DNA of 64,000 bases from assembly GCA_035402805.1 (NCBI GenBank), contig DAONDY010000001.1, positions 177,548 to 241,547 on the forward strand, read 5' to 3'. Positions 7,883-59,422 of this stretch are shown here, piece by piece; the first letter of the stretch is position 1, and each line of letters starts with the position of its first letter. The notes below the pieces were generated by a model. It did not search any database. It saw nothing but the letters and a program-made list of their open reading frames with translations, and was not told the origin of the DNA. The translations under genes were made by a program, and so were the position numbers. This DNA comes from Candidatus Woesebacteria bacterium. Lineage in GTDB: Bacteria > Patescibacteriota > Microgenomatia > UBA12405.

Positions 7883-7887
7883 AATAT

Positions 7888-9776: not shown

Positions 9777-9780
9777 GATT

Positions 9781-10376: not shown

Positions 10377-10379
10377 ATT

Positions 10380-11902: not shown

Positions 11903-11907
11903 ACTTA

Positions 11908-13160: not shown

Positions 13161-13175
13161 AAATTTAATTTAGTT

Positions 13176-13796: not shown

Positions 13797-13906
13797 CTGC
13801 GTTATTAATAATTAATTATAGGCCATTATATTGCCAAAATGTCTATTTGTCAAGTAAAAACTCTTATAACTTGTTTTTTCTGCCTTTTTTGCTTTATACT
13901 TTACCT

Positions 13907-19101: not shown

Positions 19102-19162
19102 CTTTCAAATATTAACATAATTTATATTTTCCAATCAAACGAATTGATTGTATAATTTAGTA

Positions 19163-43942: not shown

Positions 43943-44735
43943 AAATCACTTTTTATCGGTAATTATCCCCATATATAAACAAGAAAAAACCATCAAACAA
44001 GACCTTTTAAACATCAGCCAAACCCTTAAACAAATCCGTTACGATTATGAAATTATTGCAGTTGTCGATGGTACTTCTATTGATAATTCTTTTGAAACCA
44101 TCAAAAAACTCAAAATTAGTAAATTAAAAGTTTTTGGTTATAAGAATAATCACGGTAAAGGTTATGCCGTCAGATATGGCATGGCTAAAACAAAAGGGGA
44201 TTATATTGCTTTTATAGATTCGGGTATGGAAATAGACCCAAACGGTATTTCATTAGTTCTAGAGCATATGGAGTGGTATAACGCCGATATTATTGTTGCT
44301 TCAAAAAGACATCCAGCCTCAATGGTCAATTATCCTTGGGATCGAAAAATTATCAGTTTTGGTGCCCATTTAATCTCTAAATTTTTATTAGGAATTAATG
44401 TTCACGATACTCAAGCTGGCTTAAAAATTTTTAAACGTCCAGTTTTGATTAAAGTACTTCCCCGTTTATTGGTTAAAAATTATGCTTTTGATCTAGAAAT
44501 TTTAGCAGTTGCCAATCGATTAGGTTTTACCAAAATATACGAAGCTCCAATTAAATTAAACTACGACTTCACCAGTTTGACTCATGCCACTGGTCTTAAA
44601 ATTATTTATAGTTGTTTTATGGAAGCCATGTCTGTTTTTTATCGCTTAAGAATATTAAATTATTATGATGATAAAAATAAAAGAAAATGGATTTATGATC
44701 CAGAATTAGATATGCGAATTAACACTGGAGAATAA
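43932..44735 (+). CDS. GT2 polyprenol-phosphate sugar synthase (DPM1/GtrB-like)
   Basis: LSVIIPIYKQEKTI...IIAVVDGTSIDNS...AFIDSGMEIDP. Confidence 0.7.
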   Translation: MKNKNHFLSVIIPIYKQEKTIKQDLLNISQTLKQIRYDYEIIAVVDGTSIDNSFETIKKLKISKLKVFGYKNNHGKGYAVRYGMAKTKGDYIAFIDSGMEIDPNGISLVLEHMEWYNADIIVASKRHPASMVNYPWDRKIISFGAHLISKFLLGINVHDTQAGLKIFKRPVLIKVLPRLLVKNYAFDLEILAVANRLGFTKIYEAPIKLNYDFTSLTHATGLKIIYSCFMEAMSVFYRLRILNYYDDKNKRKWIYDPELDMRINTGE

Positions 44736-44737
44736 TT

Positions 44738-45718
44738 ATGAAATTGCCAAAATTTTCAGTTATTATTCCAGTCCGTAAAACAAATGATTATCTTAAAGAG
44801 ACCTTATTAAAACTCAAAAAACAATCATATAAAAATTTTGAAGTTCTAGTTATAACTGATAAATTATCTGGTTCAGCCAATCCTTCCGAAAAAAGAAATT
44901 TGGGAGCCAAAAAAGCTAAAGGTGAATATTTAGCCTTTTTAGATGATGATTCTTATCCTCACCAAAATTATTTTAAAAATGCACTTAAATTAATAGAAAA
45001 AAATCCAGAATTCGCTAGTTTTTGTGGGCCGTGTCTTACTCCACCAAAAGATAACTCGTTTCAAAAAGCCTCAGGACTTTTTTGGTCTAGCTGGTTAGGT
45101 AGTGGTGGCGCTGGCGTCTATCGAAATAGTGTCCAAAAAGCTCGTTTTGTTGATGATTATCCCACCGTCAATCTCATCGTTAAAAAAAGTGATTTTAATT
45201 TAGTTAATGGTTTTGATACTTCCTTTTGGCCTGGTGAAGATACTGTTCTTTGCCTTAATCTAGTCAAAAATCTAAACAAAAAAATCCTTTATCATCCTTC
45301 TTTAATTGTTTATCATCATCGTCGTTCTATTCTTATTCCTCATCTTCAACAAATCACTCGTTATGCCATCCAACGAGGATTTTTTGTTAAAAAATTTCCT
45401 CAAACTAGCCTTAAAATTGGTTATTTTATTCCAACTCTGTTTTTCTTATATTCTTTTATATTTTTAGTAAATAAAATATTTTTTAATAATTTTTTACTAA
45501 ATGTTCCATTATATTTATATACATCAATATTATGTTTTACCTTTTTGATTTTTCTCTTTAAAAGAAATAACCTTAAAATTTCCTTTTTAGCTGCCATTAC
45601 CATACCTATAACTCACCTTTACTACGGTATACTATTTCTACATGGCCTATTTAAAAAGGAAGTCAAATTCAAAGCCCATGACTTCAATAAAAAAACCGGC
45701 AGATACATTGGCGGTTAA
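44738..45718 (+). CDS. GT2 glycosyltransferase with C-terminal TM helices
   Basis: FSVIIPVRKTNDYLKETLLKLKKQSY...VLVITD...AFLDDDS, with about 3 TM helices at the C-terminus. Confidence 0.7.
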   Translation: MKLPKFSVIIPVRKTNDYLKETLLKLKKQSYKNFEVLVITDKLSGSANPSEKRNLGAKKAKGEYLAFLDDDSYPHQNYFKNALKLIEKNPEFASFCGPCLTPPKDNSFQKASGLFWSSWLGSGGAGVYRNSVQKARFVDDYPTVNLIVKKSDFNLVNGFDTSFWPGEDTVLCLNLVKNLNKKILYHPSLIVYHHRRSILIPHLQQITRYAIQRGFFVKKFPQTSLKIGYFIPTLFFLYSFIFLVNKIFFNNFLLNVPLYLYTSILCFTFLIFLFKRNNLKISFLAAITIPITHLYYGILFLHGLFKKEVKFKAHDFNKKTGRYIGG

Positions 45719-47159
45719 TTCTATTTCTATTTCTTACCCCCCGTTAAAATCAGATAAAGGCACCCCATTTTTATCTCAAAATCGCCAATTTCAATGGACA
45801 AATACTGGCAATGTAATTTATCCTGTTATTCCTGCTTATGCTGCTACTTTATTAAAAAATCAAGGATTTAAAGTTTTTTGGGACGATGCCATCGCTGAAA
45901 ATTTAAGTTATCAAGAATGGTTTAAACGTCTTTTTAAAAGAAAACCAGATTTAGTTGTTATTGAGACAAAAACTCCAGTAATCAAACAACATTGGGAAAT
46001 AATCAATGAATTAAAAAAAGAAAGTTTAAAAATCAAAAATTGGAAATTAAAAATTGTCTTAATAGGAGATCATGTTACTGCCCTACCGAAAGAATCAATT
46101 AAAAAATCAAAAGTTGATTTTGTCTTAGTTGGAGGTGATTATGATTTTTTGCTAAGCGAATTAGTCGAATTGATTAATAAAAACCAAGCCCCAAAAACCA
46201 AAATTTTCAAATCCAATAAAAATCATAATTTAAATTCCTTGCCAATAATAGACCGTCAGCTAACTCAATGGCAACTTTATGCCTACAATAACACCAATTA
46301 TAAATACAAACCCGGAGCCTATATCATGTCAGGACGTGATTGTTGGTGGGGAAAATGCACTTTTTGTTCCTGGACTACTCTTTTTCCCGGTAAATGTTTC
46401 CGTCAATTTTCAGTTGAACACACTCTTAAAGAAATTGAAAACTTAGTTTACAATTTTGGGGTTAAAGAAATTTTTGATGACTCAGGTACTCTTCCTATTG
46501 GCTCCTGGTTAAAGGAATTATGCCAAGCCTTAATAAGTCGCGGTCTGAATAAAAAAGTCAAAATCGGCTGCAACATGCGATTTGGTGCCTTAACCTTATC
46601 TGAATATCAACTAATGCATCGAGCTGGTTTTCGTTTTGTATTATATGGTCTCGAATCAGCTAATCAAAAAACTCTAAATTTTATAAACAAAAATGAAAAA
46701 ACCAGCTACGCTTTAAAAACTCTTAGAATGGCTAAACTTGCCAAACTAGAACCACATATTACTGTCATAATCGGATACCCAAACGAAACCAAATCAGACG
46801 CTATTAAAACCCTTAACCTGGCTAAAAAAATTTTTAAAAGTAATTTGGCTGACAGTCTTCAAGCCACCATTTTAATTCCTTATCCTGGCACTCCACTTTT
46901 TAAATATTGTCAAGAAAAAAATTTACTTTTAACCACTAATTGGGATGATTTTGATATGCGTCAACCAATTATAAAATCACCAATTTCACCATCAGAACAA
47001 ATTGAATTAGTTCAAAATCTTTTTAAAGGCATTATTAACCCTGAATTTATTTTTCAAAAAATAATTTCCATAAGATCAATAAACGATATTAAACACTTAT
47101 TTAATTATGCTTTTAAGTATTTTAAAAAACTGAAGGATTTTACAAAAAATGATAATTAG
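45678..47159 (+). CDS. B12-binding-domain radical SAM enzyme (class B-like), with an atypical Cx4Cx2C cluster motif
   Basis: N-terminal Rossmann-like B12-binding region (VLIGDHVTALPKE). The cysteine motif SGRDCWWGKCTFCSW has Cx4Cx2C spacing, which I confirmed in the DNA. The ATG at 45678 was chosen; the track start at 45642 overlaps the upstream gene by 77 nt. Confidence 0.6.
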   Translation: MTSIKKPADTLAVNSISISYPPLKSDKGTPFLSQNRQFQWTNTGNVIYPVIPAYAATLLKNQGFKVFWDDAIAENLSYQEWFKRLFKRKPDLVVIETKTPVIKQHWEIINELKKESLKIKNWKLKIVLIGDHVTALPKESIKKSKVDFVLVGGDYDFLLSELVELINKNQAPKTKIFKSNKNHNLNSLPIIDRQLTQWQLYAYNNTNYKYKPGAYIMSGRDCWWGKCTFCSWTTLFPGKCFRQFSVEHTLKEIENLVYNFGVKEIFDDSGTLPIGSWLKELCQALISRGLNKKVKIGCNMRFGALTLSEYQLMHRAGFRFVLYGLESANQKTLNFINKNEKTSYALKTLRMAKLAKLEPHITVIIGYPNETKSDAIKTLNLAKKIFKSNLADSLQATILIPYPGTPLFKYCQEKNLLLTTNWDDFDMRQPIIKSPISPSEQIELVQNLFKGIINPEFIFQKIISIRSINDIKHLFNYAFKYFKKLKDFTKNDN

Positions 47160-48162
47160 CTTTATTATTCCCACCCTTAACGCCGCTTCGGTTTTAGAAA
47201 ATTGTCTTAAATCAATTAAGAGTCAAAATTATCCCTATAAAGATTATGAAATTATCATTGCTGATGGTGGATCGATTGATAATACCCTTAAAATAGCTAA
47301 AAAATATTTTGCCAAAATTATCAATAATCCTCTTAAAACTGCCGAAGCCGGTAAAGCTCTTGGTATTAAAATAGCCACTGGAAAATATATTGCTTTAATT
47401 GATTCAGATAATATTCTTCCCACTAAAAATTGGCTCAAAAATAGCATTTCTATTTTAGAAAATGATCTCTCCTTAATTGGCGTAGAGCCGTTATTTTTTA
47501 CCTATCGACCCCAAGCTGGCTTTATTGAAAGATATTCCGCCCTAACCGGCGTCAACGACCCTTTCGCTTTGGTTTCTGGAGTTTACGATCGTCAGAATTT
47601 TATTAATTTTAAATGGACTGGCCTTAAAATAGATCAAATTGATAAAAATAAATATATAAAAATTAAACTAAAACCCAATACTCTTCTTCCTACTATTGGA
47701 GCTAATGGTACTATTTTTAGAAGTGATTTCTTAAAAAGAAATTTTGATTCGGACTATTTTTTTGACATCGATATCATTACCAGCTTTCTATCAAAAGACA
47801 AAAAACCTATTTATTTTGCCAAAGTTAAACAGGGGATTATTCATACTTTTTGTGAATCTTCGATCAAAAAATTTGTTCGTAAACAAAATCGTCGTATTAC
47901 TGATTATTTTCTCTACAAGAATATTCGTAAATTTAATTGGGATCAAAATAATAAAAATGGAATCTTAAAATTTTCACTTTATACAATTTTAATTATTCCT
48001 GCCCTTTTTGACTCTATCAGGGGATATTTTCACAAACCAGACTTTGCTTGGTTTTTTCATCCAATTGCTTGTTACCTAACCCTGATTGTATACTCAACTG
48101 TCTACTTAAAATATAAACTTTTTTCCCTAAAAGCTGTTAATAGAAATAATTGGAGTCAATAA
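47149..48162 (+). CDS. GT2 glycosyltransferase
   Basis: [26 protein letters not shown]...[12 protein letters not shown]...ALIDSDN. Confidence 0.7.
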
Positions 48163-48164
48163 CT

Positions 48165-49220
48165 ATGTCAAAAAAGGCTTTAATAACCGGATCAGCTGGA
48201 TTAATTGGATCAGAATCCGTTAAATTTTTCGCCAAAAAAGATTATGAAATCGTCGGTATCGATAATAATATGCGAGAGTACTTTTTTGGAGCAGAAGGTA
48301 GCACTAAATGGAATAATGAATTACTCTCAAAAAATTATGGAAAACAATATAACTATCATAATGTTGACATCAGAAATAACGAAGAAATAGAAAAAATATT
48401 TAAAACCAATAAATTCGACATTATCATTCATACTGCCGCCCAGCCATCACATGATTGGGCTGTTAAGGAACCTCTTACCGATTTCACTATTAATGCTCTC
48501 GGCACTTTAATTTTATTAGAAAATTACCGAAAATATTCACCTGATGCCACTTTTATTTTTACCTCTACTAATAAAGTTTATGGTGACGCTCCAAATAGAT
48601 TACCCTTAATTGAACTAGAAAAAAGATATGAGATTGAAGAAAATCATCCTTTTTTTAAAAATGGAATTAACGAAACCATGAGTATCGATAATACCAAACA
48701 CAGCATTTTTGGTGCTTCGAAAGTTTCCGCTGATGTCATGGTTCAAGAATATGGTAAATATTTTGGATTGCATACTGGAGTTTTTAGGGGTGGTTGTTTA
48801 ACTGGCCCGAATCACAGTAGTACTCAGCTTCATGGGTTTTTAGCTTATTTAGTTAAATGTATTAAGACCGGAACAAAATACACTATTTTTGGATACAAAG
48901 GTAAGCAAGTTAGAGACAATATTCATTGCAATGATTTAGTAAATATGTTTTGGAACTATCATCAAAATCCTATGTGTGGAGAAGTCTATAATGCCGGTGG
49001 TTCAAGAAATTCTAACATTTCTATGTTAGAAGCAATTGAAAAAATCGAAAAAATTTTAAATAAAAAGGCAATTTATGAATATATCGACACTAATCGAATT
49101 GGCGATCATATTTGGTATATATCCGATGTCTCTAAATTTAAAAACCAATATCCAAATTGGAATTTTTCCTACAACATTGACGATATTCTTCAAGAATTAT
49201 GTAGTCAAATACACACTTAA
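48165..49220 (+). CDS. NAD-dependent sugar epimerase/dehydratase (extended SDR)
   Basis: Rossmann motif [11 protein letters not shown] and a catalytic YxxxK region. The ATG at 48165 was chosen because GGAG lies 9 nt upstream. The track start at 48150 is a TTG. Confidence 0.75.
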
Positions 49221-49222
49221 AT

Positions 49223-50293
49223 ATGAATTATAAAGATATTTTAATTACTGGTGGCGCTGGATTTGTTGGTTCTAATTTGGCTATAAAACTAAAGGAAAGT
49301 TATCCAAATATTAATATAACCGTGTTAGATAATCTTAAAAGACGAGGATCCGAATTAAATCTTCCTAGATTAGCTAAATTTGGAATTAATTTTATTCACG
49401 GTGATGTCAGAAATAAGGAAGATTTATTTCTAAACAAAAAAATAGATTTAATATTAGAATGTTCTGCTGAACCATCAGTTTTAGCCAATATAGATGACTC
49501 TCAATATTCAATTAACACCAATCTTGTCGGAACTTTAAATTGTCTAGAACTTGCTAAGAAAAATAACTCCACCATAATTTTTTTATCAACCAGTCGTGTT
49601 TATCCGATAGAAGAGTTAAACCAAATTAAATATCAAGAAGCTAAAACTAGATTTGAAATCGATGATAAACAAATATTAGAAGGCGTTTCAAAAAATGGAA
49701 TATCTGAAAATTTTCCTTTAGGCAAATATCGTTCCCTGTACGGAGCCACAAAATTATGTTCTGAATTTTTAATTCAGGAATATGTTCACAATTTTAATAT
49801 CAAAGCCGTAATCAATCGTTGCGGAATTATCACTGGTCCATGGCAAATGGGAAAAGTCGATCAAGGAGTAATTGTCCTCTGGATTGCTCGACACATTTGG
49901 AAAAATAAACCTCTATCTTATATTGGTTTTAGTGGCAACGGAAAACAAGTTAGAGATTTTATCGATATTGATGATTTATTTAATGTTATAGATATTCAAA
50001 TCAACAATATAAAAAAATATAATAATGAAATTTTTAATATCGGTGGTGGTTTAGAAAACAGTCTTTCTTTATTAGAGATGACCGATCTTTGCCAAAAAAT
50101 AACAAAAAATAAAATCAATATTTCTTCCTGTTTCGAAAATAGGCCAGATGACATCAGAATTTATCTTTCCGATAGTTCAAAATTTAAAAAAATGTCCAAT
50201 TGGTCTTGTAAAAAGAACAAGGAACAAACTTTTCAAGAAATTTATAAATGGATAATTGACCACCAAGATATTCTTGAAAAGATATTAAATTAA
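49223..50293 (+). CDS. NAD-dependent sugar epimerase/dehydratase (extended SDR)
   Basis: ITGGAGFVGSNL Rossmann motif, YGATK catalytic motif. Confidence 0.75.
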   Translation: MNYKDILITGGAGFVGSNLAIKLKESYPNINITVLDNLKRRGSELNLPRLAKFGINFIHGDVRNKEDLFLNKKIDLILECSAEPSVLANIDDSQYSINTNLVGTLNCLELAKKNNSTIIFLSTSRVYPIEELNQIKYQEAKTRFEIDDKQILEGVSKNGISENFPLGKYRSLYGATKLCSEFLIQEYVHNFNIKAVINRCGIITGPWQMGKVDQGVIVLWIARHIWKNKPLSYIGFSGNGKQVRDFIDIDDLFNVIDIQINNIKKYNNEIFNIGGGLENSLSLLEMTDLCQKITKNKINISSCFENRPDDIRIYLSDSSKFKKMSNWSCKKNKEQTFQEIYKWIIDHQDILEKILN

Positions 50294-50295
50294 AT

Positions 50296-51417
50296 ATGAA
50301 AAATTTTTCCAAAAAGGGAATTTTAATTCTCACCCCATTTTTTTACCCAAACATTGGTGGAGTTGAAACACACCTGACAGACTTAGTTAACGGACTTAAT
50401 GATTTAAAATACCAAGTTTATGTTCACACTTATTCTCCTCTAACTACCGCCGGAGCAACTTGGAAGCCAAAAGAAACAATCCAACATATCCATATATATA
50501 GATATCATTGGTTTGGTAAAAATCTTTTCCATAAAGTCGAAAAATATCCCTTTTTAGATTTTCTCTATTTAACACCGTACCTATTTTTACGTACTTTTTT
50601 TTGGATGTTAGCTAATCATAAAAAAATTACCACTATAAATTCTCACGGATTTAACGGTGCCGTTGCTGGAAATATGTTAGCTTTTATATTCAACAAAAAA
50701 CATATTACCAGCACTCATGCTCTTTATGATAATAGTCCAAACTCCTTAACTGCCAAATTAACCAGCTTCGTCTTAAATAAAACCGATATGGTTCTAGCTC
50801 AATCTCTTCATTCCAAAAATCAACTTATAAAATGGGGTGTATCTAGTCAAAAAATCTCTTTATATCGCTATTGGATTGACCCAAAAAATTTTAACAACCA
50901 AAAATCAAATATTTCCCAGCATAAATTCAAAGTTCTCTTTGTTTCTCGTCTTATTATTAAAAAGGGGACTAGAATAATTGTAAAAATAGCCAAAAAATTA
51001 CCAAATGTAGAATTTACAATTATCGGATCAGGCCCAGAATCAAAATATATTTCTCAACAAAAATTATCTAATATTAATTTTATTGGAAAGGTAGATAATA
51101 ATAAATTATTAGATTATTACTCGACTGCTAACGTTTTTATTCAACCAGCTCTTTATCAAGAAGGCTTCACTAGAACCATCATGGAGGCCGTTGCTTCTGG
51201 AGTTCCAGTTATTGCTTCCAATATCGGTACTATTCCAGAAATAGTTGACAACTCTGTTTCTATTTTAGTAAAACCAACTGTTGCCAATTTTAAATCGGCC
51301 ATTCTCAAATTATCAAAAGATAAAAAAATACTTAATCAGATGAAAAAAAATTGCGCTCTCTACACAAAAAAATATTTCAGTCCAGCCAATATTAAATTAA
51401 TTACTCAACACTATTAA
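50296..51417 (+). CDS. GT4 (GT-B fold) glycosyltransferase
   Basis: C-terminal EGFTRTIMEAVASGVPVIASNIG motif. Confidence 0.7.
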   Translation: MKNFSKKGILILTPFFYPNIGGVETHLTDLVNGLNDLKYQVYVHTYSPLTTAGATWKPKETIQHIHIYRYHWFGKNLFHKVEKYPFLDFLYLTPYLFLRTFFWMLANHKKITTINSHGFNGAVAGNMLAFIFNKKHITSTHALYDNSPNSLTAKLTSFVLNKTDMVLAQSLHSKNQLIKWGVSSQKISLYRYWIDPKNFNNQKSNISQHKFKVLFVSRLIIKKGTRIIVKIAKKLPNVEFTIIGSGPESKYISQQKLSNINFIGKVDNNKLLDYYSTANVFIQPALYQEGFTRTIMEAVASGVPVIASNIGTIPEIVDNSVSILVKPTVANFKSAILKLSKDKKILNQMKKNCALYTKKYFSPANIKLITQHY

Positions 51418-52814
51418 TGAAAACCGTTTTATTACTAAACCCACCACTGTATTTTGATAATGGCCAACCAAAATCTCTTGATGTTTCTTTCCCTCCGTTA
51501 GGATTACTTTATCTCGCCTCTTATATTAATAAAAACTCTTCCATATTTAAAGCTAAAATAATCGATATCGGCCAAGAAAAAAAACCACTAGATGATTTAA
51601 TAAAAGCCATCAAAAAGACTAAACCTTATGTTATTGGTATCACTTCAATGACGCCTCAACTTCAAGGCGCCACAGAATTAGCTAAACAGCTTAAAAAACA
51701 CCTGAAAGAAATCCCCATCTTTCTTGGAGGCCCTCACGTTAGTGCCGATCCCGATTTTATTAATCGTCATAGTTCTCTTTTTGACTATGCCATTACCGGC
51801 GAAGGAGAAATAACCTTTTTAGAATCACTTAATAAAATCTATAAAAACAATAAATTACCCCTAACCCAAAAAAGTACCCCACCATTAAAATTAGATGATC
51901 TTCCTTATCCAGATAAAACCCTAATTAAAAGGAAAAATTATAAAAAAACCGAGTCAATGATGTTTTCTCGTGGTTGTCCATTTCACTGCTACTATTGCAG
52001 TCGACCCTCTATCAGCCATCTAGTCCGATATCGTTCCTCCGAAAATCTTATTGCCGAAATTAAAAGCTGTTATCCATATTGTCATGGTGATATTAGTTTT
52101 CAAGACGACACTTTTACCATGAATTCCAAAAACGTTATCGATTTTTGTAAAAAAATAATTAAGCAAAAATTAAAAATATCTTGGGATTGCAACACTCGAA
52201 TTGATTTGGTTGATAAAAAAATTCTTACCTTGATGAAAAAAGCTGGTTGTCGTCAGATAAATTTTGGTATCGAATCTGGTAATGAAAGAGTTAGAAAAGA
52301 AATTATTCATAAAGGTAATTTCACTAATAAAGATATTAAAAAGGTATTTGATTATTGTAAAAATCTAAAAATTAAAATTGCTTGTTACTTTATGATCGGT
52401 CATCCCACCGAAACCAAAAAAGAGTTAAATGACACTAAAAAAATGATTTTAAATTCTAAAATAGATATTTTAGGCCTTTCTATTCCCACTCCTTTTCCCG
52501 GATCAGCTTTATATGATATTTCTCTTAAAGAGGGGATAATTTCACCAAAAATCATCGACAATTTTTCTCAAAAAAAACTTGGTGTTGGCTATTCTGGTAT
52601 CTATCCAGTCTATATTCCGAAACAACTTGGTCGTGAATATTTATACGGCTTTCTAAAACAAGTTAATCGTAAATTTTACTTAAATGCTAAAACCATTTTT
52701 AATCGTCTTTTAAAAGACTTAATTTCCCCAAAGCAATTAAAAAACGATTTCAAAGATTTTATTAGTCTAATTATTAATGGAGTTTCCAGTCGAAAACCTT
52801 ATATTAAAAAATAA
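51417..52814 (+). CDS. B12-binding-domain radical SAM enzyme
   Basis: N-terminal B12-binding fold (GITSMTPQ...FLGGPHVS). The radical SAM cluster motif is FSRGCPFHCYYCSRP (Cx3Cx2C). Confidence 0.7.
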   Translation: MKTVLLLNPPLYFDNGQPKSLDVSFPPLGLLYLASYINKNSSIFKAKIIDIGQEKKPLDDLIKAIKKTKPYVIGITSMTPQLQGATELAKQLKKHLKEIPIFLGGPHVSADPDFINRHSSLFDYAITGEGEITFLESLNKIYKNNKLPLTQKSTPPLKLDDLPYPDKTLIKRKNYKKTESMMFSRGCPFHCYYCSRPSISHLVRYRSSENLIAEIKSCYPYCHGDISFQDDTFTMNSKNVIDFCKKIIKQKLKISWDCNTRIDLVDKKILTLMKKAGCRQINFGIESGNERVRKEIIHKGNFTNKDIKKVFDYCKNLKIKIACYFMIGHPTETKKELNDTKKMILNSKIDILGLSIPTPFPGSALYDISLKEGIISPKIIDNFSQKKLGVGYSGIYPVYIPKQLGREYLYGFLKQVNRKFYLNAKTIFNRLLKDLISPKQLKNDFKDFISLIINGVSSRKPYIKK

Positions 52815-52820
52815 TAAATT

Positions 52821-53933
52821 ATGGCCAATCTAAATATTAAAAAAAAGATAAAATTAGCCTTAAAATATCCTTTAACTGCTAAACACACCGTCTTCGATAA
52901 GTTTTTATATGAAAACAAAGCCACCCCGTTTCCTCGCTTAATAAATTGTTTCATTACCGAACGTTGTAATTTTAATTGTCCCATGTGCCACGTAGCCACT
53001 TCTCGTTTTAAAAACATGAACGAACTTTCTTTAGAATATCTAAAAAAGTTTTTTGACAATATCGCTAAATTTTCCCCATCGATTTCTTTAGCCGGCGGCG
53101 AACCTTTAATGCATTCTGAAATTATTGACATAATAAAATATTTAGATCAGAAGAAAATGGTTAAAGGTCTGGTAACCAATGGTTTGTTATTAGAAAAAAT
53201 GGCCCCTGATTTAATTAATTCCGGTCTCGATTTTTTAGCAATTTCTCTTGACGGCCCGGACGAATCAACTCAATACCAGAGAGGTTTGGTTAAAAATTCT
53301 TTCCCTCAGATAATTAAAGGTATAAAAAAAATAATCGAATTAAGAGGGGATAAGACCTTTCCTAATATTCGTGTTGCCACTGTTATTTCTAAAGCTAATA
53401 TTGCTAATTTTGACCAAATTTATCAAGTCATTAAAGATTTAGGCGTCGACGAATGGTCCATAAGCCATCACTTTTATTTTTATGACAAAATCAAAAAACA
53501 ACAATCAAAATTTAGTCAAAAAACTAAATTTGGCAACGATGTTTGGGGTGAATATAATGGCACTAAAAAAGTTTTTTTTAACGCCAAAGAACGTCTGATT
53601 ATTTCTCAAAAATTAAAAGAAATCCAATCCTTAATAGATAGTCATAAATCTAAAATTAAAATAACTATGCCCAATAGTATGGATGTTAAAAATTTTTACA
53701 CTGGCACCTTTCCCAAAAAAGAATCTACCTGTACTTCTCCTTTCAATCAAGTATTTCTTCGAGGCAATGGTGACATTGAAATGTGTCATGGTTATATTCT
53801 AGGTAATATTAAAGATTCTTCTTTATTAGACATTTGGAAAAATAAAAGAACTACAAAATTTCAAAAATACATTCAAAAAAATAAAATTATACCTGCTTGT
53901 TTTAGATGTTGTTCTTTAAATCCAATTTTCTAA
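52821..53933 (+). CDS. Radical SAM enzyme with a C-terminal SPASM/twitch-like auxiliary Cys-rich domain
   Basis: ITERCNFNCPMCHV (Cx3Cx2C) and the GGEPL SAM-binding motif. The C-terminal Cys cluster is CTSPFNQVFLRGNGDIEMCHGY...IIPACFRCC. Confidence 0.65.
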   Translation: MANLNIKKKIKLALKYPLTAKHTVFDKFLYENKATPFPRLINCFITERCNFNCPMCHVATSRFKNMNELSLEYLKKFFDNIAKFSPSISLAGGEPLMHSEIIDIIKYLDQKKMVKGLVTNGLLLEKMAPDLINSGLDFLAISLDGPDESTQYQRGLVKNSFPQIIKGIKKIIELRGDKTFPNIRVATVISKANIANFDQIYQVIKDLGVDEWSISHHFYFYDKIKKQQSKFSQKTKFGNDVWGEYNGTKKVFFNAKERLIISQKLKEIQSLIDSHKSKIKITMPNSMDVKNFYTGTFPKKESTCTSPFNQVFLRGNGDIEMCHGYILGNIKDSSLLDIWKNKRTTKFQKYIQKNKIIPACFRCCSLNPIF

Positions 53934-53935
53934 CT

Positions 53936-54961
53936 ATGAATTTTTCGATAGTCATTGTCAATTACAACGGTAAAAAATATTTATCAAACTGTCTTAAATC
54001 AATTTTTTTAAACAATTATCATGATTTTGAAATTATTATTGTTGATAATAATTCCACCGATGGTTCAGTAAATTTTATTAAAAATAAATTTTCAAAATCT
54101 CTAAATAAAATTAAAATAGTAACTTTAAAGAAAAACTTTGGGCCGGCTTTCGCCAGAAATGAAGGAGTTAAAAAAGCCACCGGTAAAATAATCTGTTTTT
54201 TAGACAATGACACTGAAGTTGATGCTAATTGGTTAAAATCAGCTCTATTAGAGTTTAAAAAAGACCCAAAAATAGGCTGTATTCAATCAAAACTACTCCT
54301 ATTAGATGAAAAGGACAAATTTGATTACGCTGGCGATTATCTAAATCAATTTGGTTTATTAAGCCATCGGGCCACTTATAAAGACATTGATGTTGGTCAA
54401 TATAATAAAAAAGCTATTATATTTTCAGCTAAATCAGCTGGTATGTTTATTCGCAAAGATGTTTTTAATCTAATAAATGGTTTTGATGCCGATTATTTCA
54501 TTTATGTCGAAGAAACTGATCTTTGTTGGCGATCTTGGTTAAAAGGTTATAAAACAATTTATTGTCCAACCTCTATTGTTTATCATGGTTTTGGCGGCAG
54601 TTTTAAATTACTTAAATCAAGTTTCAGTACCAAAAATCTTCGCTTTCATGGAACCAAAAATTATATTTTAACCATGTTAAAAAACTTATCGACCTCTAAA
54701 CTAATTAAAATAGTACCGGTTCAAATAATAATCTTTATCTTTTTTTCTCTCTATTTATTCTTCATAAAATTTAAAATAAAAGAATCTTTTTACGTCATTT
54801 CAGGTATAATTTGGAATCTAAAAAATATTAAAAAAACTTTATCAAAAAGACGAGTAATTCAAAAAAACAGAAAAATAACTGAAGAAAAACTTTTCTCTTA
54901 TATTTTTAAAAAAGAAAATCTTTTTAATAAAATTAATAAGTCAATCTTACTTAAAGTCTAA
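53936..54961 (+). CDS. GT2 glycosyltransferase
   Basis: FSIVIVNYNGKKYL...IIIVDNNSTDGS...CFLDNDT...YVEETDLCWR. The ATG at 53936 lies 3 nt after the upstream stop. The track start at 53906 overlaps the upstream gene. Confidence 0.75.
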   Translation: MNFSIVIVNYNGKKYLSNCLKSIFLNNYHDFEIIIVDNNSTDGSVNFIKNKFSKSLNKIKIVTLKKNFGPAFARNEGVKKATGKIICFLDNDTEVDANWLKSALLEFKKDPKIGCIQSKLLLLDEKDKFDYAGDYLNQFGLLSHRATYKDIDVGQYNKKAIIFSAKSAGMFIRKDVFNLINGFDADYFIYVEETDLCWRSWLKGYKTIYCPTSIVYHGFGGSFKLLKSSFSTKNLRFHGTKNYILTMLKNLSTSKLIKIVPVQIIIFIFFSLYLFFIKFKIKESFYVISGIIWNLKNIKKTLSKRRVIQKNRKITEEKLFSYIFKKENLFNKINKSILLKV

Positions 54962-56421
54962 TGGCCACTAAAAAAATATTATTCGTTGTCCCCGAAATCA
55001 AATCCATGTTTGGTACTGAAAAGGGTATTCCCATTCATCCACATGTTGGCATTGCCTATCTTGTTTCAGTTTTAAAAAGAAATAATTTTCAATACCAAAT
55101 TATTGATTGTGGCGTTGAAAAAGACTGGCCGATAAAACTTAAAACTGCTATTAAAAATTTTTCTCCCGACATTGTCGGTGTCACTGGTTTTAGCTACGCC
55201 TATAAATATCTTTATCAAACCATTAAAAAAATCAAATCTATTACCAATATTCCTATTATTCTCGGTGGCCCACATGTTTCCGCTAATAAAAACAAAATTT
55301 TAAAGGAAACTAAGGTTAATTTTGCCATGTATGGCGAATCAGAAATTTCTATTATTGACTTTCTAAAGGCTTTTTCTAAAAAAAATCCAGACTTTTCCAA
55401 AGTTCCTAATCTCATTTGGAAAAACAAAAATAAAGTAATTATTAACTCACCAGCACCTCTAATTCGTGATTTAGATCAATTAGCCTTCCCAGATTATGAA
55501 AGTTTTAATTTATCCGCCTATCCCTGTTTCCGAGAAAAAATCATTCCTATTATCACTTCTCGAGGCTGTCCTTATGGCTGTAATTATTGTTCCGTTAGAC
55601 TTTCTATGGGTCAAAGTTTCCGGCCCAGAAGTCCCCAAAACGTTATCGATGAAATCACTTATTGGTATAAAAAAGGTTTTACTAATTTTGACTTTAATGA
55701 TGACTGCTTTACCTTAGATGTTAATCGTGCCGAAGCTATTTGTGACTTAATCATTAAAAATAAACTCCATATTAAATTTCAACTTTATAACGGTATTAGA
55801 GTTAATAACATAACCCTTAAACTTCTTAAGAAATTAAAAAAGGCTGGTTGTTTTTTCATTGCCTATGGTTGCGAATCTGGAAGCCAAAAAATTCTTGATA
55901 GAATCAAAAAAAATATTACTCTAGATCAAGTCACTCAGGCAGTAAAATTTACTAATCAAGCTAAAATCAAACACGCTGTTAATTTCATTGTCGGTCATCA
56001 AGACGAAACATATCAAGACGCTTTAGAAACTTTTAAGTTTGCCAAAAATCTAAATTGTAATTATGTAAACTTTTACAATCTTGTCCCTTATCCAGGAACC
56101 GAAGTTTATGATTGGGCCATTAAACATGCCCATTTCTTAATTCCCAAAAATCAATATTTAAAAAATGTTTCCTATCGCGACATTAATCCTATTTTTGAAA
56201 CCAAAGAATTCACTAAAGATCAGCGAATTAAGATTATGAAAAAGGGCTTTAACTTATATGAAAGAAAACTTTATCGATTCCGCTTTGGTAAAATATTAGG
56301 AACTATTTTTTATTTGTTAACTCGTATACCTTTTTTTGGTCATTTATCTAGAAAATTAGTTTACGATAATAAATTTTTTAACAAACTTTTTAGTATTTTA
56401 ATTTCCTCATCTAAAAAATAA
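54961..56421 (+). CDS. B12-binding-domain radical SAM enzyme
   Basis: B12 fold (VGVTGFS...ILGGPHVS) and TSRGCPYGCNYCSV. Confidence 0.7.
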   Translation: MATKKILFVVPEIKSMFGTEKGIPIHPHVGIAYLVSVLKRNNFQYQIIDCGVEKDWPIKLKTAIKNFSPDIVGVTGFSYAYKYLYQTIKKIKSITNIPIILGGPHVSANKNKILKETKVNFAMYGESEISIIDFLKAFSKKNPDFSKVPNLIWKNKNKVIINSPAPLIRDLDQLAFPDYESFNLSAYPCFREKIIPIITSRGCPYGCNYCSVRLSMGQSFRPRSPQNVIDEITYWYKKGFTNFDFNDDCFTLDVNRAEAICDLIIKNKLHIKFQLYNGIRVNNITLKLLKKLKKAGCFFIAYGCESGSQKILDRIKKNITLDQVTQAVKFTNQAKIKHAVNFIVGHQDETYQDALETFKFAKNLNCNYVNFYNLVPYPGTEVYDWAIKHAHFLIPKNQYLKNVSYRDINPIFETKEFTKDQRIKIMKKGFNLYERKLYRFRFGKILGTIFYLLTRIPFFGHLSRKLVYDNKFFNKLFSILISSSKK

Positions 56422-56426
56422 CCAAT

Positions 56427-57989
56427 ATGAAAATTCTCCTTATTTATCCGCCAATGACCATTAGGAGCAATGATACTACCACTCCTGGTGCTTCTATACC
56501 CTTAGGATTGGCAAATATTGGAGCTATATTGGAAACCAATGGCTATAACGTCTCCATTATTGATGCCCTTGCTGAAGGTATAAATATTGTCAAAAAAACC
56601 AAAAACTCCACCAGAGTTGGTTTATCTGAAAAGACTATTATCGAAAAATTGAATTATTATCAGCCAGACATTGTTGGTGTCAGCACTATGTTCACTGCTT
56701 ATTCTGGTGATGCCCACGATATCGCCAAAATTGTTAAAAAAGTTAACCCAAAAACTTTAGTTGTTTTTGGTGGTGCTCACGCTTCCATTCTTTATAAAAA
56801 TGTTCTCAGTGATAAAAATGTCGACGTTGTTGTTGTCGGTGAAGGGGAAGATACTATTATCGAAGTAGTTAAAAAATTCGAAGCCAAAAAAAATCTTAAA
56901 AATATTTTTGGTACTGCCGTTAGAAACGACAAAGGTGAAATTATTTTAAATCCCCGTCGTCAATTAATTACCAAGCTAGACTCACTTCCACTTCCTGCTA
57001 GACATCTTCTTCCTATGGATATTTATCTCAGTGACGAAAAAGAAAATAAAGGTTCCTATGCCATGCGTCTTCCTTCCACTAATGTTGTTACCAGTCGTGG
57101 TTGTCCAGGTAATTGTATTTATTGTGCCGTTCCTACCATCTGGGGTAGAAGTTGGCGACCTTTTAGTGCCGACCGCATTGTTAATGAAATAGAATTTTTA
57201 GTTAAAAGATACGGCATTAAAGAAATTCATTTTCTTGATGATAATATTTCCGTCAGCCGCGATCGATTAGAAAAAATCTGTGATGGTATTATTCAAAAAA
57301 AATTAGATATCAAGTGGACTTGTCCAAATGGTATTGCCATTTGGACTCTCGACAAACCGCTTCTCAAAAAAATGAAAAAAAGCGGTTGTTACCGACTTAC
57401 TTTTGGAATTGAATCTGGCCATCCAGCTACTCAAAAATTCATTAGAAAAAATTTAAATTTAAAAAAGGCCAAAAAAATAATTAAATTAGCAAATGATTTA
57501 GGTATTTGGACGTTTTCCACCTATATTATTGGTTTTCCTTATGAAACCCAAAAAGCCATCGAAACCACTTTTAACTACGCTATTAAATCTCTTTCCGATT
57601 TTGTTGTTTTTATTCTCCTTATGCCTTTTCCTGAAACTGACGTTACTAAAATTTTAGAAAAAGAAGGTTTATTAAAAAAAGCTGATATTAGTAGTGCTAG
57701 AATCGGCAAAACATTTTCTGGTTATGCTGGGTTAGGAAACAAATATCTCACCGTAGATAATATCCGCAACCTTCGTAATAAAGCTCAAAAAAGACTAATG
57801 GTTTCTCGTTTTTTTAGGCCTCTAATTAAGCCAGCTTCTCTCCTTAAAAAAGTTAGTAATTGGGAGGAATTTACCTATCTCATTAAAATTATCAAAAATT
57901 ATCTAACCATGTTCTTTTCAACTATTAAATTTGGAGAGCTTAAAACCCACCGTCTTAAAGCCGCTTATAAATATAAGATCATTAAATGA
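56427..57989 (+). CDS. B12-binding-domain radical SAM enzyme
   Basis: VGVSTMF...VFGGAHAS and TSRGCPGNCIYCAV. Confidence 0.7.
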   Translation: MKILLIYPPMTIRSNDTTTPGASIPLGLANIGAILETNGYNVSIIDALAEGINIVKKTKNSTRVGLSEKTIIEKLNYYQPDIVGVSTMFTAYSGDAHDIAKIVKKVNPKTLVVFGGAHASILYKNVLSDKNVDVVVVGEGEDTIIEVVKKFEAKKNLKNIFGTAVRNDKGEIILNPRRQLITKLDSLPLPARHLLPMDIYLSDEKENKGSYAMRLPSTNVVTSRGCPGNCIYCAVPTIWGRSWRPFSADRIVNEIEFLVKRYGIKEIHFLDDNISVSRDRLEKICDGIIQKKLDIKWTCPNGIAIWTLDKPLLKKMKKSGCYRLTFGIESGHPATQKFIRKNLNLKKAKKIIKLANDLGIWTFSTYIIGFPYETQKAIETTFNYAIKSLSDFVVFILLMPFPETDVTKILEKEGLLKKADISSARIGKTFSGYAGLGNKYLTVDNIRNLRNKAQKRLMVSRFFRPLIKPASLLKKVSNWEEFTYLIKIIKNYLTMFFSTIKFGELKTHRLKAAYKYKIIK

Positions 57990-59422
57990 AGATTCTTTTA
58001 ATTGCTCCAGCCGATAATAAAATTGCCAAACCATATTCAACTTCTAAAATAAAACCAACTCCAGCCTTTTCTTGTTATGCCTTTCCTATGGGTATTAGTT
58101 ATTTGGCCGCTTATGCTAAAAAAGAAGGGCACGATGTTTCTATTCTTGATTGTCTTTCTCGAAATTTAAGCCTTAAACAAATTAAAAAAGAAATATTAAA
58201 AATAAAACCAGATGTAATCGGTATTACTAGCATGACCTATTACATAAAGTCCGCTGTTAAAATTGCCGATATTTGTCGAAAAACATTTCCTAAAATACCG
58301 ATTGTATGCGGTGGCCCTCATGTCAGTTTTGATTATGAAAACATATTAACCAATTATAATTTTGACTATGTTGTTATTGGAGAAGGGGAATTAACTTTTT
58401 GTGAACTCCTTAAATATCTTGAAAATAAGGAAAAAATAAAATTAGAGAATATTAATGGAATTGCCTTTAAAAAAGGTAAAAAAATAATAAAAACTGCACC
58501 TCGCCATCTAATAGTAAATCTTGATGATGTTCCTTTTCCTGCCAGAGAATTATTTCCTTTTAATAATTATATCTACGATCAATTACTTCCAAATGCAGTT
58601 GAAATTATTGGATCACGTGGTTGTTCCCATCGCTGTGCCTTTTGCAGCTCTTCCCATTTTTGGCAGTCATGGCGAGCCAGATCACCCCAAAATATAATTA
58701 AAGAAATGAAATTTATATTAAAAAATTACCCAAAGACTCAATCATTTTTATTTTATGATGATAATTTTACTTTAAATCAAAAACGGGTTAATACTCTCTG
58801 TCAACTCTTAATCAAAAATGGTCTCAATAAATACCCCTGGAATTGTAATGCCCGAGCCGATCAAGTAAATCTAAAAATGTTAAAACTAATGAAAAAGGCT
58901 GGATTAGTCAAAATTAATTATGGTGTTGAAAGTGGTTCTCCAAAAGTTGCTAAAAATATTGACAAAAATTTAGATATTAAAACTCTTAAAAAAGCCATTA
59001 AGATGACCAGAAATCTAGGCATCGAAGTTTTAACTTTTTTCATAGTCGGTAACCCCGGTGAAACTAAAGAAACAATTAAAGAAAGTATAAAATTGGCTAA
59101 AGAATTAAAATCAACCACCACTCTTTGGAGTATTGCCCAAATATTACCTGGAACAAAATTAGCCATGCTACAGCCAATTCCTGATTTTGTTAAATATGTT
59201 TATAAACCAGAAATTAACCATCCTTATGCCCATTTGGGCAGCTATATTCCTGTTTTTGAAAACCCAAACTTAAACCGTGAACAGCTTAAATCAGAACATA
59301 CCAAAATAATTAGGTATTTCACTTTTTACTATCTCTTTCATCATCCAATAATTCAAATTAAACATTTTTTAAATTCACCTCTAAAAGCTATAAAATATTT
59401 AAATCAAACTTTTAATAAATAA
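57986..59422 (+). CDS. B12-binding-domain radical SAM enzyme
   Basis: IGITSMTY...VCGGPHVS and GSRGCSHRCAFCSS. Confidence 0.7.
   Translation: MKILLIAPADNKIAKPYSTSKIKPTPAFSCYAFPMGISYLAAYAKKEGHDVSILDCLSRNLSLKQIKKEILKIKPDVIGITSMTYYIKSAVKIADICRKTFPKIPIVCGGPHVSFDYENILTNYNFDYVVIGEGELTFCELLKYLENKEKIKLENINGIAFKKGKKIIKTAPRHLIVNLDDVPFPARELFPFNNYIYDQLLPNAVEIIGSRGCSHRCAFCSSSHFWQSWRARSPQNIIKEMKFILKNYPKTQSFLFYDDNFTLNQKRVNTLCQLLIKNGLNKYPWNCNARADQVNLKMLKLMKKAGLVKINYGVESGSPKVAKNIDKNLDIKTLKKAIKMTRNLGIEVLTFFIVGNPGETKETIKESIKLAKELKSTTTLWSIAQILPGTKLAMLQPIPDFVKYVYKPEINHPYAHLGSYIPVFENPNLNREQLKSEHTKIIRYFTFYYLFHHPIIQIKHFLNSPLKAIKYLNQTFNK

Follow-up and report, generated by a model that had tools for sequence, protein, structure and literature searches.

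Radical SAM genes as a conserved core gene and as variable cassettes in a predicted cell-envelope glycan locus of a Candidatus Woesebacteria bacterium

What could six radical S-adenosylmethionine (rSAM) enzymes be doing inside a glycosyltransferase (GT) operon of a reduced-genome bacterium? We have addressed this question in a stretch of 64,000 nucleotides (hereafter, the window) of contig DAONDY010000001.1 (assembly GCA_035402805.1, positions 177,548 to 241,547 of the forward strand; G+C content ~30%). An earlier note, made from the sequence alone, had described here a battery of five paralogous cobalamin-binding rSAM enzymes plus a SPASM-domain rSAM, and had proposed that they formed a dedicated multi-step pathway in an organism of the candidate phyla radiation (CPR). 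The NCBI protein records (HPT65904-HPT65914) agreed on the organism, which is listed as Candidatus Woesebacteria bacterium and known from a metagenome-assembled genome. A 370 kb contig of GCA_964497985.1 carries the same locus, and its proteins were also found on a contig of up to 579 kb. All six rSAM open reading frames (ORFs) were present (Table 1); we refer to the five cobalamin-type ones as rSAM-A to rSAM-E. Comparison with related loci did not sustain the idea of a single dedicated pathway: rSAM-A is a conserved core gene, and rSAM-B, the SPASM enzyme, rSAM-C, rSAM-D and rSAM-E, which occur in differing subsets across genomes, are cassettes in a hypervariable tailoring island. We propose, with a probability of about 0.55, that the enzymes carry out cytoplasmic radical tailoring of sugars on lipid-linked surface-glycan intermediates, C-methylation being the likeliest reaction for rSAM-B to rSAM-E.

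The distinction between core and island was drawn from seven further loci with an rSAM-A ortholog (L089-L095), chosen by exact-protein look-ups. With the window they make eight A-core loci, a small sample, and the frequencies given below rest on small numbers. The same gene order (three GT-C genes, GT2a, GT4a, GT2b, GT2c, rSAM-A and GT2d) was found in all seven, with 40-87% identity to the window, and this core was conserved across Woesebacteria- and Shapirobacteria-type genomes. Beyond GT2d the loci diverged, up to a conserved flank encoding a membrane TPR protein and a CofD-like protein; this flank was retained in L089, L090, L093, L094 and in L005, a further CPR contig. The variable island of the window extends over positions 48165-60565 and comprises two short-chain dehydrogenase/reductase (SDR) genes, a GT4 gene, rSAM-B, the SPASM gene, GT2e, rSAM-C, rSAM-D, rSAM-E and GT4c, in this order.

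Elsewhere, the slots of the island were filled by class I methyltransferases, a hexapeptide acetyltransferase, an aminotransferase, or other sets of B12-rSAM and SPASM genes. Two islands contained GTs and transferases, namely a GT2, a GT4 and a methyltransferase in L089, and a GT2, three methyltransferases, an acetyltransferase, a further GT2 and a GT4 in L090. The remaining ones carried three SPASM genes, two B12-rSAMs, a methyltransferase and GTs (L091); two SPASM genes, at least three B12-rSAMs, a methyltransferase and GTs (L092); three B12-rSAMs (L093); one SPASM gene, one B12-rSAM, a methyltransferase and an acetyltransferase (L094); and at least two B12-rSAMs, an aminotransferase, an epimerase and a thiamine pyrophosphate (TPP) enzyme (L095). 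Extra class B rSAMs were thus found in the island of six of the eight A-core loci, and rSAM batteries are common in this lineage rather than unique to this genome. The island most like that of the window was in L005, which retained the SPASM gene, GT2e, rSAM-C, rSAM-D, GT4c and rSAM-E at 56-64% identity, with the GT4c ortholog (56% identical) placed between rSAM-D and rSAM-E. We have also observed that rSAM-C and rSAM-D were 89-90% identical between the window and L092 (18781-21482), compared with 78-87% for the nine core genes. From these identities, the higher value of the C-D cassette would fit a recent exchange between lineages.

In the window, core and island form one run of 19 co-directional genes (37133-60565, 23.4 kb), with every gap between -41 and +6 nt. 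The tight co-directional packing described in the earlier note therefore reaches beyond the interval that it had covered, and Pfam agreed with the GT2, GT4 and two SDR neighbours that it had named. None of the six rSAMs has transmembrane (TM) segments. The promoter and terminator scan of positions 42000-61000 was uninformative (111 promoter-like matches vs 93 +/- 10 expected; 6 terminator-like matches vs 9.5 expected). A cluster of five class B rSAM genes in 14 kb goes far beyond what chance would produce, and the arrangement is found again in related genomes. The five proteins are indeed homologous, but they are only 26-36% identical to each other, which makes them ancient paralogs rather than the product of a local expansion, as judged from these identities; each of them has its own orthologs elsewhere, at 48-90% identity.

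Table 1. Genes of the operon and of its right flank, with positions in the window. Percentages are identities to the window protein.
Feature	Position	Strand	Assignment and conservation
Three tandem GT-C (PMT/PMT_2-type membrane GTs), start of core operon	37133-38794, 38781-40421, 40405-42027	+	Pfam; orthologs in the same position in L089-L095, 40-84%
GT2a, core	42024-42851	+	Pfam Glycos_transf_2; GT2a/GT4a 60-86% in 7/7 comparison loci
GT4a, core	42851-43942	+	Pfam Glycos_transf_1; GT2a/GT4a 60-86% in 7/7 comparison loci
GT2b, core, 267 aa, polyprenyl-phosphate-sugar-synthase-like	43932-44735	+	76-87% across loci; on average the best conserved core gene
GT2c, core, membrane-anchored, three C-terminal TM-like segments	44738-45718	+	Pfam GT2 families; stop overlaps rSAM-A start by 41 nt
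rSAM-A, core, class B fold, 493 aa	45678-47159	+	66-87% in L089-L095
GT2d, final core gene before the variable island	47149-48162	+	Pfam GT2; 58-79% in 7/7 loci
SDR1, island, extended SDR of NDP-sugar epimerase/dehydratase type	48165-49220 (mechanical ORF start 48150)	+	Pfam Epimerase, GDP_Man_Dehyd
SDR2, island, extended SDR of NDP-sugar epimerase/dehydratase type	49223-50293	+	Pfam Epimerase, GDP_Man_Dehyd
GT4b, island	50296-51417	+	Pfam Glycos_transf_1, Glyco_transf_4; matches only 35-38%, in L005, L091, L092
rSAM-B, island, class B, complete cobalamin motifs	51417-52814	+	PF02310 76.7 bits, PF04055 83.5 bits; orthologs 48-65% in L091, L092, L093
SPASM/twitch-type rSAM, island	52821-53933	+	Pfam Radical_SAM, SPASM, Fer4_12; orthologs 56-62% in L005, L091, L092
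GT2e, island, rSAM-C partner (1-nt overlap)	53906-54961	+	Pfam GT2
rSAM-C, island, class B, complete cobalamin motifs	54961-56421	+	Orthologs 61-89% in L005, L091, L092, L094
rSAM-D, island, class B, complete cobalamin motifs	56427-57989	+	Orthologs 63% in L005, 90% in L092
rSAM-E, island, class B, complete cobalamin motifs	57986-59422	+	Ortholog 60% in L005 only; relatives 40-48% in other phyla
GT4c, island, weak GT4-like, last operon gene	59423-60565	+	Pfam Glyco_transf_4 30.5 bits; no NCBIfam match
Polytopic membrane protein with C-terminal TPR domain, right flank	60578-62323	-	Pfam; ~10 TM-like segments ahead of TPR
CofD/YvcK-family protein, right flank	62360-63343	-	Pfam

We have then examined what kind of enzymes the island encodes. 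Pfam Radical_SAM (PF04055) matched all six proteins with 53-91 bits, and the B12-binding domain PF02310 (cutoff 32.1 bits) matched rSAM-B, -C, -D and -E with 51-91 bits. The cluster motifs were those reported in the earlier note for the five cobalamin-type proteins, with Cx3Cx2C in rSAM-B to -E (and also in the SPASM protein) and Cx4Cx2C in rSAM-A. Base-off cobalamin binding is associated with G-x-S/T-x-X after strand beta3, Gly-Gly on beta4 and Gly-Glu at alpha5 (PMC9204698). All three motifs were present in rSAM-B to -E (GITSM, GVTGF, GVSTM and GITSM; GGPH or GGAH; GEGE or GESE), those of rSAM-B being GITSM, GGPH and GEGE. The GGPH(V/A)S motif and the N-terminal cobalamin-binding domain, both ascribed to all five proteins, accordingly stood for four of them: rSAM-B, -C and -E carry GGPHVS and rSAM-D carries GGAHAS, whereas rSAM-A has IGDHVT and no PF02310 match, yet retains the class B fold. 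The AlphaFold (AF2) model of rSAM-E (pLDDT 92.9) gave full-length matches to all solved class B enzymes, with TM-scores of 0.63-0.72 (TsrM, MgmA, AprD4, OxsB, CysS and TokK). On this basis, rSAM-B to -E are credible predicted cobalamin binders.

The comparison with curated families was less specific. The best NCBIfam match was HpnJ for rSAM-A and -B, BchE for rSAM-C and -E, and the Sden_1168 P-methyltransferase family for rSAM-D, all at less than half of the cutoff. For rSAM-A to -E, respectively, the scores were 129, 153, 137, 177 and 196 bits against HpnJ (TIGR03471, cutoff 577.6) and 99, 135, 164, 172 and 230 bits against BchE (TIGR02026, cutoff 481); bacteriochlorophyll genes were not found in the window. 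Scores against AprD4 (NF033070, cutoff 500) were 28-104 bits, and AprD4 was also the best solved sequence relative of rSAM-E, with a match that covered the rSAM core only. All five likewise fell below the cutoffs of the curated class B methylases, namely PhpK (TIGR04479), Sden_1168 (NF038361), KedN5 (NF033712), HpnR (TIGR04367) and the MCR Gln methylase (TIGR04014). The best methylase-family score was that of rSAM-D against Sden_1168 (225 bits, cutoff 575), the others being lower relative to their cutoffs. The profile library lacks dedicated models for GenK, Fom3 and MoeK5, and the comparison covered the class B methylase families named here.

The core enzyme, rSAM-A, differs from the other four. 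Although the ORF can be extended upstream to 45642, public databases contain the 493-aa form with its start at 45678. Its cluster motif reads CWWGKCTFC, and its cobalamin motifs are degenerate at all three sites (IETKT, IGDH and GGDYD). In addition, its "His loop" contains a family-invariant insertion of ~14 residues with the motif SQNRQFQW. The AlphaFold model (pLDDT 76.4) showed the two-domain class B fold, with a Rossmann domain plus a barrel, and its best full-length structural matches were AprD4 (top), MgmA, OxsB and TsrM. Weak PF02310 matches were seen in ~40% of the close rSAM-A homologs, and some more distant relatives scored above threshold (34-40 bits). Despite the class B fold, cobalamin binding by rSAM-A itself is doubtful, as suggested by its motifs.

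The rSAM-A family is very large and highly conserved, with the best 120 clusters all at least 63% identical and many of them from Shapirobacteria. The length of its cluster loop varies (Cx3, Cx4, Cx7 and longer). Some metagenome members (P0378, P0379, P0381, P0388 and P0386) are interrupted by inteins, consisting of an Intein_splicing domain plus a LAGLIDADG homing endonuclease, or of a mini-intein in P0386. These inteins sit in the loop that binds the Fe-S cluster, at the third Cys in four of the proteins (...CWWGKCTF|C...N|CSWTT...) and at the first Cys in P0381. Top rSAM-A matches of 890-972 aa, considered as possible GT2-rSAM fusions, turned out to be these intein-containing proteins.

The sixth rSAM, described in the earlier note as a SPASM-domain protein, gave a PF13186 match of 40.5 bits (cutoff 21.5). 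It has the Cx3Cx2C motif at residue 49 and only five C-terminal Cys residues (C304, C322, C360, C363 and C364), ending in a CxxCC motif at the very end of the protein. This number suggests a single auxiliary cluster, of the twitch-like kind, rather than a full seven-Cys SPASM domain. Its best solved relative was BlsE, a cytosylglucuronate decarboxylase (7vob, 54.9 bits), the match covering the rSAM core (residues 42-215). The protein was below all NCBIfam cutoffs, including that of BlsE (73.7 vs 400 bits) and that of its top match, a tungsten-cofactor maturase family (121 vs 380 bits).

If the rSAMs act on glycans, they should keep company with GTs in other lineages as well. The GT2c stop overlapped the rSAM-A start in every A-core locus, and GT2e was present in all four loci with an rSAM-C ortholog. 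The rSAM-C family reaches Omnitrophota, Berkelbacteria and a Methanolobus archaeon, its best 120 clusters being at least 52% identical. In the latter (L096, Methanolobus sp., GCA_033549165.1), we found orthologs of GT2b (38% identity), GT2c (46%), rSAM-A (49%), GT2d (33%), GT2e (32%) and rSAM-C (53%). The archaeal rSAM-A retains Cx4Cx2C, LSQNRQFQW and GDHVTA, and both the 4-nt GT2c-A overlap and the GT2e-C overlap are preserved. Further genes of L096 encode three methyltransferases, a GT-C and two SDRs, and between the cassettes lie an NTP_transferase and the two SDRs. Across positions 205-14829, the six shared orthologs keep the local order and overlapping gene pairs of the CPR window. As far as sequence and gene order can tell, the shared CPR/archaeal locus implies inter-domain transfer of glycan-tailoring cassettes. 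GT2e-like genes also adjoin E/C-like rSAMs in Omnitrophota, Pelobacteraceae, Geobacteraceae and Pelotalea chapellei. A region of P. chapellei DSM 13688 (L087, NZ_JAHDYS010000011.1, 9881-16582) encodes a class B rSAM ~31% identical to rSAM-D, a GT2e-like GT2, a SPASM rSAM and a PpgS/DPM-like GT2, and this cultured Geobacter relative could be an experimentally accessible analogue.

Most ortholog loci were thus linked to GTs, and none belonged to a known cofactor or lipid pathway, the setting that the earlier note had named beforehand as the one that would speak against its proposal. The linkage is not universal, as discussed below. GT neighbours were screened with phmmer using probes from the window, a procedure that under-detects GTs (some were missed in locus L001).

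A search of genomes with an rSAM-E-family profile gave 80 loci among the matches listed. In 36 of these 80, an rSAM of a sister subfamily had a GT2 of AglJ/DPM/PpgS type adjacent on the same strand, and 19 sister-subfamily loci among the same matches also encoded a membrane protein of family PF03706 (MprF flippase type). The cassette, composed of a small protein, the AglJ/DPM-like GT2, the rSAM and the PF03706 protein, was seen in FCPU426, Planctomycetota, Nitrospirota and other phyla (examples among L017-L088: L064, 8711-12500, and L048, 11466-12470), and P0116 is an rSAM-PF03706 fusion. Against a hidden Markov model (HMM) of the AglJ/DPM-like GT2s paired with rSAMs in other phyla, GT2b scored 114.5 bits, compared with 12-43 bits for the generic GT2s of the window. 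The sister rSAMs were considered as rSAM-E orthologs and rejected, as they are 29-33% identical to rSAM-B, -C, -D and -E, about equally to each. Because of this equal distance, their flippase and polyprenyl-phosphate-synthase context is only suggestive. The widespread GT2-rSAM pair was also rejected as HpnI/HpnJ, since the rSAM scored 214-225 vs 578 bits and the GT2 is AglJ/DPM/PpgS-like.

Methyltransferases were recurrent partners too. A class I methyltransferase is fused to the C-terminus of P0179 in the rSAM-A family and of P0302, P0335, P0360 and P0364 in the rSAM-C family, and a separate one lies directly downstream of rSAM-A in L093 (11461-12135) and of rSAM-C in L096 (11452-12261). This suggests that the rSAM and the methyltransferase may act on the same substrate. 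Batteries were also seen elsewhere, with six class B rSAM genes within 21 kb in an Elusimicrobia metagenome-assembled genome (MAG; L067, 1151-16602), where the probe-based screen found no GT neighbour, and four in L084 (5814-15373); these may represent rSAM batteries in a different context.

The surroundings of the operon indicate which kind of glycan may be involved. The window is mostly a cell-envelope glycan region with GT2, GT4 and GT-C genes, and it contains a Wzx-like flippase (24364-25854) and an LCP (LytR_cpsA_psr) ligase (6833-7882); an ABC-2 permease (ABC2_membrane) and its ATPase (ABC_tran), seen in L001, lie just past the right window edge. Multiple GTs, export and ligation machinery, a conserved core and variable tailoring genes together characterise a polysaccharide locus, and we consider this to be a cell-envelope glycan locus of the O-antigen or secondary cell-wall polymer type. 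No lipid-synthesis genes were found in the window, nor any hopanoid or HpnK-type genes. Matches to TIGR04157 ("glyco_rSAM_CFB" GT family) were weak (47-59 bits, cutoff 400). SDR1 and SDR2 were below every NCBIfam cutoff; they have no counterpart in the other Microgenomates loci, and orthologs (56% and 42% identical) were found in a Lentisphaerae locus (L009), beside an rSAM-E ortholog.

Other features of the region may be recorded here. Thirteen GT-C genes (PMT, PMT_2, YfhO/PTPS_related and GT87-like) lie within 8349-42027. ArnC/DPM-like GT2 genes stand directly upstream of GT-C genes at 13754-14635 (before 14517) and 19148-19927 (before 19827), pairs that resemble the GT2/GT-C parts of three-component glycosylation systems. 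The LCP ligase and two proteins with C39-like peptidase domains (3570-4328 and 11908-13128) are encoded upstream of the glycan genes and adjoin FtsE/FtsX. A 562-aa ORF (25833-27521, + strand) has ~10 TM-like segments and no Pfam match; this protein, or the TPR protein of the right flank, could be a polymerase, a ligase or a GT-C-like enzyme.

Taken together, the data are compatible with the following model. The six rSAMs would be soluble cytoplasmic tailoring enzymes, each paired with a GT (GT2c with rSAM-A, GT2e with rSAM-C). The partner GT would add a sugar to a polyprenyl-phosphate sugar or to a growing polyprenyl-linked glycan, and the rSAM would then alter an unactivated position of the added sugar by radical chemistry. 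This would occur at the cytoplasmic face, at a stage that precedes both export and GT-C-catalysed transfer. For rSAM-B to -E, cobalamin-dependent C-methylation of the sugar, of the MoeK5/GenK type, is the likeliest reaction, because all the published base-off cobalamin motifs are present, because methyltransferases occupy equivalent slots in other islands, and because most characterised class B enzymes are methylases, by a review's list (PMC9204698). The step performed by rSAM-A may be independent of cobalamin or may not be a methylation (for example, a dehydration, a rearrangement or a ring contraction), given the degenerate cobalamin motifs of this protein and its closest structural match, AprD4. 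For the SPASM/twitch enzyme, a BlsE-like reaction on a sugar is probable (oxidation, decarboxylation or epimerisation). Since lineages differ in their rSAM, methyltransferase and acetyltransferase cassettes, the island as a whole may serve surface-glycan diversification. We put forward, with clearly lower confidence and as a tentative extension, that GT-coupled class B rSAM cassettes (GT2c plus rSAM-A, GT2e plus rSAM-C, and relatives) are common to CPR bacteria and methanogenic archaea and modify polyprenyl-linked surface-glycan intermediates by radical chemistry. Cassette swapping would then be a new, cobalamin-dependent means of diversification in organisms that acquire B12 from their community or host, and the modifications would include C-methyl branches and deoxygenated or ring-rearranged sugars.

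Several observations weigh against this model. None of the six rSAMs reached a curated family cutoff in NCBIfam and, because of this, the proposed chemistry is read from class membership alone, although within class B function is hard to predict (PMC9204698). The nearest curated families of rSAM-A, -B, -C and -E, HpnJ and BchE, are non-methylases. A PF02310 match or the cobalamin motifs are no proof of cobalamin binding, and AprD4 has the same fold and is a dehydratase. The methyltransferase fusions would be explained just as well by an rSAM that does no methylation itself and generates the group on which the methyltransferase acts. A lipid-linked substrate is suggested by the sister subfamily and not by orthologs, and no PF03706-like gene was found in the window. 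No GTs were found nearby in three of the nine closest rSAM-E-ortholog loci (L008, L013 and L014; 40-44% identical); in one of these (L014, 8895-11443, Omnitrophota), the ortholog adjoins a type IV pilin-like (N_methyl) gene and pta-ackA. Finally, a priming phosphoglycosyl transferase (PF00953, PF02397) was not detected among the window ORFs scanned, of which a few small ones and the 10-TM ORF at 25833-27521 were unassigned; the gene could lie elsewhere in the genome.

Some of these points lead to a reading in which the substrates are the same sugars and the chemistry is non-methylating (ring contraction, 1,2-diol dehydration leading to deoxygenation together with an SDR reductase, epimerisation, anaerobic hydroxylation or oxidation), with the class I methyltransferases, where present, then methylating the new group. 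We regard this as rather doubtful for the set as a whole, but as a serious rival, especially for rSAM-A with its degenerate motifs; the models would be the rearrangement of HpnJ, the dehydration of AprD4, or an oxidation as in BchE with subsequent O-methylation. Besides the HpnJ and BchE affinities, it draws on AprD4, a sugar 1,2-diol dehydratase, being the best sequence relative of rSAM-E and the best structural match of rSAM-A, on the methyltransferases fused to or directly downstream of A- and C-family enzymes, and on the two SDRs of the island, whose orthologs stand beside the rSAM-E ortholog in L009. The HpnJ, BchE and AprD4 scores are all far under their cutoffs, however, and AprD4 ranks high partly since HpnJ and BchE have no solved structures. 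SDR1 and SDR2 resemble ordinary NDP-sugar enzymes and are missing from other rSAM-bearing islands, and rSAM-B to -E keep the three cobalamin motifs in a class where methylases prevail (PMC9204698). The same SDRs, being of the NDP-sugar dehydratase/epimerase type, could also mean that the rSAMs act with them on soluble NDP-sugars, upstream of glycosyl transfer, to make unusual donors. This would agree with the joint presence of orthologs of rSAM-E, SDR1 and SDR2 in L009, with the NTP_transferase and SDRs between the Methanolobus cassettes and with the nucleotide-linked substrates of Fom3 and OxsB (PMC9204698). It is nonetheless improbable, as the conserved, translationally coupled partners of rSAM-A and rSAM-C are GTs and not nucleotidyltransferases or SDRs, most rSAM-bearing islands (L005, L091-L094) have no SDR, and the partners of the sister subfamily are a polyprenyl-phosphate-sugar synthase and a flippase-like protein.

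A lipid target, either the polyprenol carrier, which the earlier note had named as a possible substrate, or scavenged membrane lipids, seems very unlikely. Methylation or cross-linking would be expected by comparison with HpnP/HpnR, the ladderane enzyme and the GDGT synthases, and all five class B-type proteins gave sub-threshold matches to TIGR04072 (lipid-biosynthesis B12 rSAM) and HpnR, as did the SPASM protein to Tes/GDGT-MAS. These matches are weak (at most 154 vs 360 bits for TIGR04072; 58 vs 450 bits for Tes) and the window lacks lipid-synthesis genes. Moreover, strain-variable enzymes that are interchangeable with sugar O-methyl and O-acetyl transferases are more easily understood as decorating a glycan than as modifying a universal carrier. 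Hardly any weight is given to a protein or peptide target (S-layer protein, pilin or RiPP-like precursor) that the neighbouring GTs would also glycosylate. Class B and SPASM rSAMs are typical maturases of ribosomally synthesised and post-translationally modified peptides (RiPPs), and we did find sub-threshold matches to ApyD, rSAM_ocin_1 and PapB. PMT-type GT-C enzymes glycosylate proteins, the best NCBIfam match of GT2a was the SunS family of peptide S-glycosyltransferases (56 vs 350 bits), and the rSAM-E ortholog of L014 has pilin-like neighbours. In the operon, though, gaps of 6 nt or less leave no space for a precursor gene, the C39-like peptidases are encoded at a distance of over 30 kb, and each rSAM has a GT2 as its conserved partner, in bacteria and archaea alike.

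CPR bacteria live attached to other cells and, to our knowledge, almost nothing is known of their surface chemistry. If radical tailoring of lipid-linked sugars is correct, CPR surface glycans would carry carbon-level modifications beyond those made by ordinary glycan-tailoring enzymes, with a set that varies by strain in a serotype-like manner. Class B rSAM chemistry would extend from antibiotics and hopanoids to cell-envelope glycan assembly, and a large, mostly uncharacterised enzyme class would gain a testable substrate context, because each enzyme would have a defined partner GT. The surface-glycan synthesis of a reduced-genome symbiont would also be tied to external cobalamin. The cassettes in the Methanolobus MAG and, more distantly, in cultured P. 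chapellei DSM 13688 suggest possible experimental routes. The earlier note knew of no glycan pathway of this composition, and this held, as no curated family covers any of the rSAMs and no published account of such an arrangement of rSAM/B12 enzymes, in CPR or in cell-envelope glycan loci, was found in the literature, an absence of evidence only, with subscription journals mostly outside the coverage.

The systems that come closest are known from other contexts. Earlier cases in which an rSAM acts on the sugar of a glycolipid or oligosaccharide are HpnJ, MoeK5, GenK/GenD1 and AprD4 (PMC9204698) and Cds (PMC13459092), and none of them is placed in a cell-envelope polysaccharide locus. Polyprenyl or undecaprenyl substrates do not come up in a 2026 review on rSAMs that modify lipids (PMC13459092). 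The logic of the operon resembles that of HpnI/HpnK/HpnJ in bacteriohopanetetrol cyclitol ether synthesis, in which a class B rSAM remodels a sugar that a GT2 has attached to a lipid, HpnJ being proposed to contract the glucosamine ring (PMC9204698, PMC13459092). HpnJ is also the best curated family for rSAM-A, rSAM-B and the GT2-paired sister subfamily. However, the scores (129-225 vs 577.6 bits) are low and the partner GT2s gave no HpnI match at the thresholds used. Unlike the hopanoid system, this one has many GTs, GT-C enzymes and an exporter, and the product should therefore be a polymer or glycoconjugate rather than a hopanoid headgroup.

The rSAMs MoeK5 (moenomycin) and GenK/GenD1 (gentamicin) depend on cobalamin and add methyl groups to unactivated sugar carbons in GT-built glycoside or lipid-linked oligosaccharide intermediates (PMC9204698). 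rSAM-B to -E share their architecture and cobalamin motifs, without a close sequence relationship to methylases of this type (KedN5, PhpK and Sden_1168 are far under their cutoffs). These enzymes belong to actinomycete secondary metabolism, whereas here up to five enzymes, with methyl transfer predicted only, occur in a CPR cell-envelope glycan locus. In apramycin 3'-deoxygenation, AprD3 is the partner of AprD4. The latter, whose substrate is a sugar diol, is class B-like in its fold (PDB 6fd2), and SDR genes lie close to the rSAMs here as well; the differences are the low NCBIfam scores and the absence of SDR1 and SDR2 from most rSAM-bearing islands. BlsE, like the predicted role of the SPASM protein, acts on a sugar moiety and is its nearest solved relative, with a similarity confined to the rSAM core and far below the family cutoff.

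With O-antigen and wall-polysaccharide loci, this one shares a conserved assembly core, strain-variable tailoring genes, an ABC-2 exporter, a Wzx-like flippase and an LCP ligase. Its ArnC/DPM-like GT2 genes directly upstream of GT-C genes recall GtrA-GtrB-GtrV and ArnC-ArnD-ArnT, and ArnD, which modifies a sugar while it is attached to undecaprenyl phosphate, provides an earlier example of tailoring on the carrier. Known O-antigen and wall-polysaccharide systems tailor their glycans with O-methyl, O-acetyl, phosphoryl or glucosyl transferases, and we know of no such system, nor of a three-component one, that does so with rSAM enzymes. The enzyme class is known and the locus type is known; their combination is undescribed and apparently widespread.

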